NCBI GenBank assembly: GCA_042852035.1
Contig: BAAFHK010000002.1
Coordinates: 1-32,000, forward strand
DNA: 32,000 nucleotides
Origin: Candidatus Saccharimonadota bacterium
GTDB lineage: Bacteria; Patescibacteriota; Gracilibacteria; BD1-5; UBA2023
Direction: 5' to 3'
Positions 30,656 through 30,803 of this stretch are shown here, one piece after another. The translations under genes were made by a program, and so were the position numbers. The notes beneath the pieces are model-generated. The model saw only the letters and a program-made list of their open reading frames with translations. It was not told the DNA's origin and ran no database searches. Numbering within the stretch: position 1 is the stretch's first letter; every line of letters begins with the position of its first letter.

Positions 30656-30725
30656 AGCCAGCCAGCCAGCCAGCCAGCCAGCCAGCCAGCCAGCCAGCCA
30701 GCCAGCCAGCCAGCCAGCCAAGCCA
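30656..30725. repeat. Tetranucleotide microsatellite (AGCC)16 plus one offset extra unit
   Basis: There are 16 perfect AGCC units at 30656-30719, then a single A and one more AGCC. The repeat is intergenic, between the stop at 30569 and the promoter at 30776. Confidence 0.95.
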
Positions 30726-30775
30726 TTCTTGATACTTCGTAATCAAAATAAGAACACATAATCCCATCTGATATA

Positions 30776-30803
30776 TTGACAAAATAATTATATAGACTAT
30801 AAT
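30776..30803 (+). promoter_or_regulatory. Consensus sigma70-like promoter for the gene starting at 30838
   Basis: TTGACA (30776-30781), a 16-nt spacer, then TATAAT (30798-30803), 35 nt upstream of ATG 30838. Confidence 0.55.

Follow-up and report, generated by a model that had tools for sequence, protein, structure and literature searches.

A variable AGCC repeat tract upstream of the promoter of a DGR target gene on an integrative island in Gracilibacteria

When TGA was read as a sense codon, the total ORF length in the window (the whole stretch of 32,000 nucleotides analysed here) more than doubled, the ORFs of the standard code being badly fragmented. In-frame TGAs of the QueA gene align with conserved glycines (FFSFxD against FFSFGD, and KExSVAAPTA against KEGSVAAPTA), indicating that the genome uses genetic code 25. 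Lists of standard-code ORFs are therefore misleading for this window; the segments 9663-10819 (-) and 12365-13585 (+) are examples of frames that need TGA as sense. The GalU protein of the window is identical to NCBI GAB0174843.1. The queA gene lies in two overlapping pieces in different frames, 9663-10421 and 10367-10819 (-), both of which align to solved QueA structures, and is either a frameshifted pseudogene or the product of an assembly error.

The locus of interest lies on a mobile island (Table 1). Related loci (designated L001 onwards) were fetched through homologues of the DGR target gene, through homologues of the 186-aa protein encoded upstream of it, and with one junction pattern. 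In L013-L017 the large serine recombinase occupies the corresponding position next to RNase J, and the relatives have a backbone beside RNase J that runs from the recombinase through a DnaJ-domain protein to the 186-aa protein. The tRNA-Ser gene, the serine recombinase and this common backbone together identify the region as an integrative island. A protein-based scan of viral contigs returned no relative, and there is thus no sign that it is a known phage. The 186-aa protein has 12 homologues (52-92% identity) and gave no domain match in a Pfam search. Homology to islands without a DGR stops at the stop codon of its gene (30569), behind which the cargo differs: L013-L019 and L021-L023 carry a strong hairpin terminator and metal-handling genes, and the window, L012, L020, L024, L025 and L146 carry an 86-bp flank, the AGCC tract, a spacer, a promoter and the DGR. 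The metal-handling cargo of L013, L015, L016 and L021 comprises a cysteine-rich small peptide, a CsoR-like repressor, DsbA/DsbB, DUF305 and cation-efflux genes.

Table 1. Features of the island and of the repeat locus, in window coordinates
Feature	Position	Strand	Basis or remark
tRNA-Ser(GCT), left edge of the island	23554-23646	+	ARAGORN; 3' end of the recombinase ORF overlaps
Large serine recombinase	23589-25415	-	Pfam Resolvase 8e-16, Recombinase 1.5e-11
186-aa protein, last backbone gene	30009-30569	+	Code-25 translation; signal-peptide-like N-terminus
AU-rich hairpin (30611-30647) and T-run (30648-30655), directly before the tract	30611-30655	+	RNA fold z about -2
(AGCC)16 tract	30656-30719	+	Direct sequence reading; 16 perfect units
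Degenerate last unit, A-AGCC	30720-30724	+	Unchanged in all alleles (alignment A1)
Spacer, tract to -35 hexamer	30725-30775	+	51 bp; 84-93% identity to relatives
Sigma-70-type promoter, TTGACA-16-TATAAT	30776-30803	+	Pattern scan; 12/12 match
DGR target gene	30838-31596	+	NCBI GAB0174870.1, 252 aa, three in-frame TGA = Gly; exact match (P0076)
Variable region (VR)	31426-31614	+	Matches the template repeats of L009 and L001 at 86-87%
GC hairpin ATCCGCTTTATGCGGAT and T-run, between target stop and avd start	31698-31714	+	Conserved; L001 4447-4463
avd	31745-32000 (gene cut by window end)	+	Pfam PF22296 bAvd, E = 2.2e-9

The gene downstream of the tract had been put forward in the first-pass annotation as a putative DGR target, and this proposal was borne out by the bAvd gene that follows it, by the template repeat (TR) and reverse transcriptase (RT) of its relatives and by sequence changes that fall mostly on adenines. 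We found 48 homologues of the target, one of them labelled Candidatus Gracilibacteria; an exact look-up of the fragment of the target obtained with code 11 gave no match. When the VR of the window was compared with the TRs of L009 and L001, 14 of 23 and 18 of 25 mismatches, respectively, lay at TR adenines, and within the relatives themselves the TR-to-VR changes were at adenines in 20 of 21 (L009) and 17 of 22 (L001) cases. The avd orthologue is a bAvd gene also in L001, L009 and L010. The cassette of L001 shows the order target, bAvd, a 188-nt repeat of the target 3' end and an RVT_1 reverse transcriptase; the TR and RT of the window's own genome lie beyond position 32000, and the evidence for the RT comes from this cassette. 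By these comparisons the gene at 30838 is a genuine DGR target. The GC hairpin between target and avd stands about 85 nt after the VR, and could be a terminator that separates the target from avd-TR-RT or, alternatively, a DGR cis element.

Tandem Repeats Finder reports the tract at 30656-30725 (period 4, 17.2 copies, score 131), and the window has 13 matches to a 16-nt (AGCC)4 probe, against none in 100 dinucleotide-preserving shuffles. The tract has 75% G+C and sits inside an AT-rich spacer. The sole other tetranucleotide run of four or more units within the window is (CTCG)4. A scan of 242 kb, consisting of the window and the related loci, found no tetranucleotide run of more than four units elsewhere; as a whole, these genomes are not rich in repeats. 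The position of the tract some 50 bp ahead of a consensus promoter, as the first-pass annotation had described it, was confirmed: 51 bp separate its end (30724) from the -35 hexamer. The same annotation, made without knowledge that TGA is read as sense in this genome, had called the tract intergenic, and this holds. In the three forward frames through the tract, stops are met at 30740-42, 30759-61 and 30793-95, all of them before the ATG at 30838. No credible ORF crosses the tract on either strand or in any frame, code 25 included, and the gene limits at NCBI agree, with only two flanking gene products on record and none over the tract. The AGCC tract is real and intergenic.

An AGCC tract was found at the identical site in nine assemblies, that is, in the window and in eight other independent ones. 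The comparison of alleles across related metagenomes that had been suggested as a check gave a positive result: the same site holds 6 units in L020 (Logan SRR24957565), 10 plus one mutated to AGCA in L146 (an ENA activated-sludge contig), 16 in the window (an NCBI MAG), 17 in L012 (NCBI GCA_054403755.1), at least 19 in L009 (ENA/JGI/NCBI) and at least 29 in L010 (JGI), so that unit number is different in every informative allele. The first four of these are spanned by their contigs; the contigs of L009 and L010 end inside the tract, as do three from Logan (L011, L024 and L025, at least 7 units each). These last three end with about 28-30 nt of tract, which we attribute to a k-mer of about 31. 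Contig breaks inside the tract fit heterogeneity of its length, and also fit a tract longer than the assembler k-mer. The L011 contig otherwise runs from the tract to avd, and its last 29 nt (1158-1186) are identical to window positions 30556-30584, upstream of the tract, probably through a joining artefact of graph or k-mer. A scan with an exact pattern of the left junction yielded one new allele, L146. The corresponding right-junction pattern had no match in the metagenome and genome collections, and missed L146 because the last unit of that allele is mutated.

The tracts are orthologous. The left junction, TATAAT-ATTTTT, is common to all nine assemblies, with one-base variants in L012 and L020, and the right junction, A-AGCC-ATTCT, is present in every allele that reaches the right side. 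Across the eight other assemblies the flanks are 81-98% identical to those of the window. When only the spanned alleles are compared, identity is 93-98% in the left flank and 81-89% in the right one. The adjoining coding DNA has 87-91% identity to the window, and conservation is thus higher in the left flank, although it is non-coding, than in the coding sequence next to it. An artefact of assembly or sequencing could be suspected from the five related contigs that end inside the tract, but nine independent assemblies made with SPAdes, MEGAHIT, JGI and Logan pipelines have the same junctions, and four of them span both flanks; these independent spanning contigs refute it, and we give this explanation practically no weight. 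Only one of the tracts has an interrupted unit (L146), and this is the single substitution in all of the tract DNA. At the divergence of the flanks, several changes per lineage would be expected had these 24-116 bp changed by substitution alone, where one is seen in all tracts together, indicating that slippage is much faster than point mutation. From the comparison of alleles, the tract is old and very probably hypermutable, and at the same time persistent across lineages. The alleles, however, come from lineages about 10-15% diverged, and what they demonstrate is evolutionary lability, not high-frequency reversible switching. Among the four spanned alleles, the unit numbers 6, 11 (10+1) and 16 are spaced by steps of 5 units, or 20 bp, or about two helical turns; this pattern is a weak hint, with a chance of about 0.14 by our own arithmetic.

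The promoter downstream of the tract is predicted to start transcription near 30810, about 7 nt past the -10 hexamer. The motif TTGACAAAATAAyTATATA is kept upstream of target homologues in the unrelated genomic contexts of L001, L002, L003 and L020, and by this conservation the promoter is part of a module with the target gene; in viral contigs the exact promoter pattern had no match. In L001 the same promoter and the DGR cassette stand directly behind an ApbE gene, without a tract. Homology of L001 to the window begins at 30759 (the BLAST boundary), 17 bp before the -35 hexamer, and the first 34 bp of the spacer (to 30758) are found only in tract-bearing loci. Orphan target homologues with the same promoter likewise have no tract, and these cases together with L001 show that the promoter does not need it. 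Relative to the predicted start site, the tract occupies about -154 to -86. UP elements usually reach from -40 to -60. The tract lies beyond this reach, and an effect through spacing would therefore need a distal protein site.

The left flank, 86 bp between the stop codon of the 186-aa gene and the tract, is conserved and contains a perfect 10-bp inverted repeat (I7). Its AU-rich hairpin is kept in L012 and L020 and, with the T-run, is probably terminator-like for the upstream gene. Overlapping the hairpin is a weak promoter-like sequence, TTGCGC-17-TATAAT (30621-30649), whose predicted start would be the first unit of the tract. It matches the consensus at 3/6 positions in the -35 and 6/6 in the -10 hexamer, and neither of the two pattern scans picked it up.

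We propose that the tract may act as a spacing switch, comparable to that of nadA, which tunes transcription of the DGR target, and would put the probability of this reading at roughly 0.45. Conservation of the left flank, and of the promoter together with its target gene, speaks for a regulatory role; the tract-free cassette of L001 and the distance to the core promoter speak against one. By slipped-strand mispairing the tract very probably gains and loses 4-bp units. Each 4-bp step would shift both the distance and the helical face (by about 137 degrees) of the left flank with respect to the core promoter, the left flank contributing its hairpin and T-run, possibly an operator, or the weak promoter. 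Cells differing in unit number would then differ in the level at which they transcribe the target, and with read-through the same tuning would extend to avd-TR-RT. The outcome would be a stochastic volume control of the kind exerted by the TAAA tract of meningococcal nadA. A farther-reaching version, in which the tract stochastically switches or dims the DGR unit as a whole and sets the amount of target-avd-TR-RT transcript, and with it the frequency of mutagenic retrohoming, cell by cell, seems to us quite unlikely. If true, it would place a heritable and reversible on/off layer over targeted hypermutation, on a mobile island of an ultrasmall CPR bacterium.

The main rival to the spacing switch is that the tract has no function: a hypermutable microsatellite at the junction between island backbone and DGR cargo, kept pure and long by slippage itself. 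This is consistent with the promoter and DGR cassette of L001, which do without a tract, with the distance of at least 51 bp from the -35 hexamer, and with the locus having yielded neither an operator nor a regulator. Tracts of (AGCC)8 or longer also occur sporadically in many phyla, suggesting that they can arise anywhere. Bacterial tracts that are not under selection are, however, expected to shrink and to collect interruptions. Here, from 6 to at least 29 units have been kept in nine assemblies despite a flank divergence of 2-19%, long tetranucleotide tracts are otherwise absent from the 242 kb, and the non-coding left flank is unusually conserved. On balance we consider a functionless tract somewhat unlikely.

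Alternatively, the tract could act as RNA, transcribed from TTGCGC-17-TATAAT or by read-through of the 186-aa gene, its length setting leader structure, processing or read-through. The window, L024, L025 and L146 do have a perfect TATAAT at a distance of 6 bp ahead of the tract (TACAAT in L020; L012 keeps the -10 hexamer, with one base different in the 6-bp spacer), the pattern scan found no GC-rich terminator between the upstream gene and the tract, and the heptamer in the 5'-UTR of hmw1A offers a precedent (PMC12721329). The -35 hexamer of this sequence, however, has only 3/6 matches and was missed by the scan, the left flank folds into a hairpin with a U-run, at which transcripts from upstream would end shortly before reaching the tract, and the perfect consensus promoter lies downstream. 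In addition, Rfam gave only sub-threshold chance matches on the tract, and folding it as single-stranded DNA produced no stable structure for the plus strand and an artefactual ladder of isolated pairs for the minus strand. As a possible stem, an imperfect inverted repeat of 22 nt on the two sides of the tract (I1) was discarded, since substitutions in L012 break it without compensation (alignment A1). A role as RNA is thus in our judgement improbable. Very unlikely is a translational on/off switch within a reading frame, as made by the AGCC tracts of mod genes. The tract does have an in-frame ATG at 30635, and all three AGCC frames encode SQPA; but every frame stops before 30838, the longest stretch between stops (87 codons) shares sequence with the upstream gene, each of the three phases is represented among the unit numbers 6, 16 and 17 of spanned alleles, and no gene is called over the tract at NCBI. 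Of the two candidates, the small ORF MIFYNIF(SQPA)n..., from ATG 30635 to TAA 30742, and a fusion to the target gene, the small ORF was rejected. Judged from the frames, a translational switch is close to refuted.

AGCC tracts are known from the modA (Type III methyltransferase) phasevarions of Neisseria and Haemophilus, where they are part of the reading frame and turn translation on or off. The present tract resembles them in its unit, in similar unit numbers and in slipped-strand instability, but here there is no open frame, and neither of the neighbouring genes has a Pfam methyltransferase domain. The analogy to Haemophilus contingency loci drawn in the first-pass annotation therefore stands as regards slippage and fails as regards placement, the classic AGCC tracts being inside mod frames and this one intergenic. 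As in contingency loci, the tract is long and pure with a unit in the range of 1-8 bp, and the number of units differs between relatives. At 51 bp from the -35 hexamer it stands farther out than most tracts located in promoters, and its assignment to the promoter region would depend on distal sites. Across 185,579 species genomes we counted at least 120 stretches of (AGCC)8 or longer; the matches listed include Neisseria, Gilliamella, Moraxella, Legionellaceae, Streptomyces and one Paceibacterota MAG, and there were no Gracilibacteria among them, a listing that is little guide to further AGCC tracts in the present genomes.

A closer parallel in placement is nadA of N. meningitidis, in which a TAAA tract upstream of the core promoter alters the distance between NadR operators that surround an IHF site, and the response of transcription to unit number is quasi-periodic (PMC2791445). 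Both are tetranucleotide tracts of varying unit number that lie outside reading frames and upstream of the -35 hexamer of a complete promoter. The nadA tract, at about -55 to -85, has 4-13 units, is AT-rich and overlaps contacts of IHF, NadR and RNA polymerase alpha (PMC2791445), whereas the AGCC tract occupies about -86 to -154, ranges from 6 units to at least 29, belongs to a CPR bacterium and precedes a DGR target. A possible counterpart to the nadA operators and IHF site is the conserved left flank with its perfect 10-bp inverted repeat, but no regulator gene or binding motif was identified. The heptamer repeats of hmw1A/hmw2A in non-typeable Haemophilus influenzae are, like the AGCC tract, intergenic and placed before a gene (in their case one for a surface protein); they are transcribed in the 5'-UTR as a hairpin cleaved by RNase III, and longer tracts alter the level of expression, not the reading frame (PMC12721329). 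In contrast, the strong promoter is here downstream of the tract, the plus strand is unstructured and there is no conserved hairpin partner. From the same phylum one repeat locus has been described, a hypervariable coding 9-mer (PTD) with synonymous variants inside a surface protein of a Gracilibacterium (PMC6851277). This repeat, too, fragments assemblies and is suspected to vary by slippage (PMC6851277), although it is coding and the AGCC tract is an intergenic tetranucleotide. The DGR itself is of the kind found in phage BPP-1 and in CPR bacteria, with a target carrying a 3' VR followed by bAvd, TR and RT, and with adenine-specific TR-to-VR changes.

The proposed switch mechanism is thus of a known kind, and what is new is the setting: a CPR bacterium, a mobile island and a DGR target. 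In full-text literature searches no paper came up that connects a DGR with a simple-sequence repeat, including one before the target promoter, and no paper on tetranucleotide repeats in Gracilibacteria. To our knowledge, nearly all repeat-driven contingency loci have been described in pathogens adapted to a host, among them Neisseria, Haemophilus, Campylobacter and Helicobacter. The present tetranucleotide tract is long, belongs to a CPR bacterium that is uncultured, and has persisted through much evolutionary time ahead of a gene which a retroelement already diversifies. Should it tune the promoter, two independent hypervariation mechanisms would meet at one locus, one acting on the amount of protein (and perhaps on DGR activity) and the other on the protein variant, and Patescibacteria would thereby gain their first described promoter switch of the contingency type. 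A practical consequence is that short-read assemblies break in the tract, at the border of the DGR cassette, so that the context of the cassette can be hidden.

The target gene shows some further variation. In the window it is seemingly frameshifted within the VR (31540-31616): the conserved C-terminus of the family, ...AVSSVVVLDK*, is found in the +1 frame with its stop at 31614-16, and the annotated protein ends ...VGRGQLLILAGERCQ* at 31596, there being one extra base near 31545-31550 relative to the templates of relatives. The end of homologue P0003 is likewise out of frame in the same region. Either a true indel or an error of the consensus, the region being variable in the population, could explain the frameshift. 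In-frame TGA codons for glycine occur inside the template/variable repeat (31435-31437 and 31558-31560 in the window), and between 779-966 and 1597-1784 of L009 one TGA has become TGG, changing Gly to Trp; under code 25, adenine mutagenesis of TGA can yield only Gly, Trp or Cys, never a stop. At the other end of the gene, several relatives have, in place of the first 40 or so codons, an N-terminus of unrelated sequence (MS..GYTTREQQDAYDLLP..), with conservation of the promoter and of the remaining gene (compared at window 30838-30954, L002 10001-10120, L003 6001-6127 and L020 7190-7320). Some of the copies with a swapped N-terminus are orphans, with neither Avd nor RT nearby.
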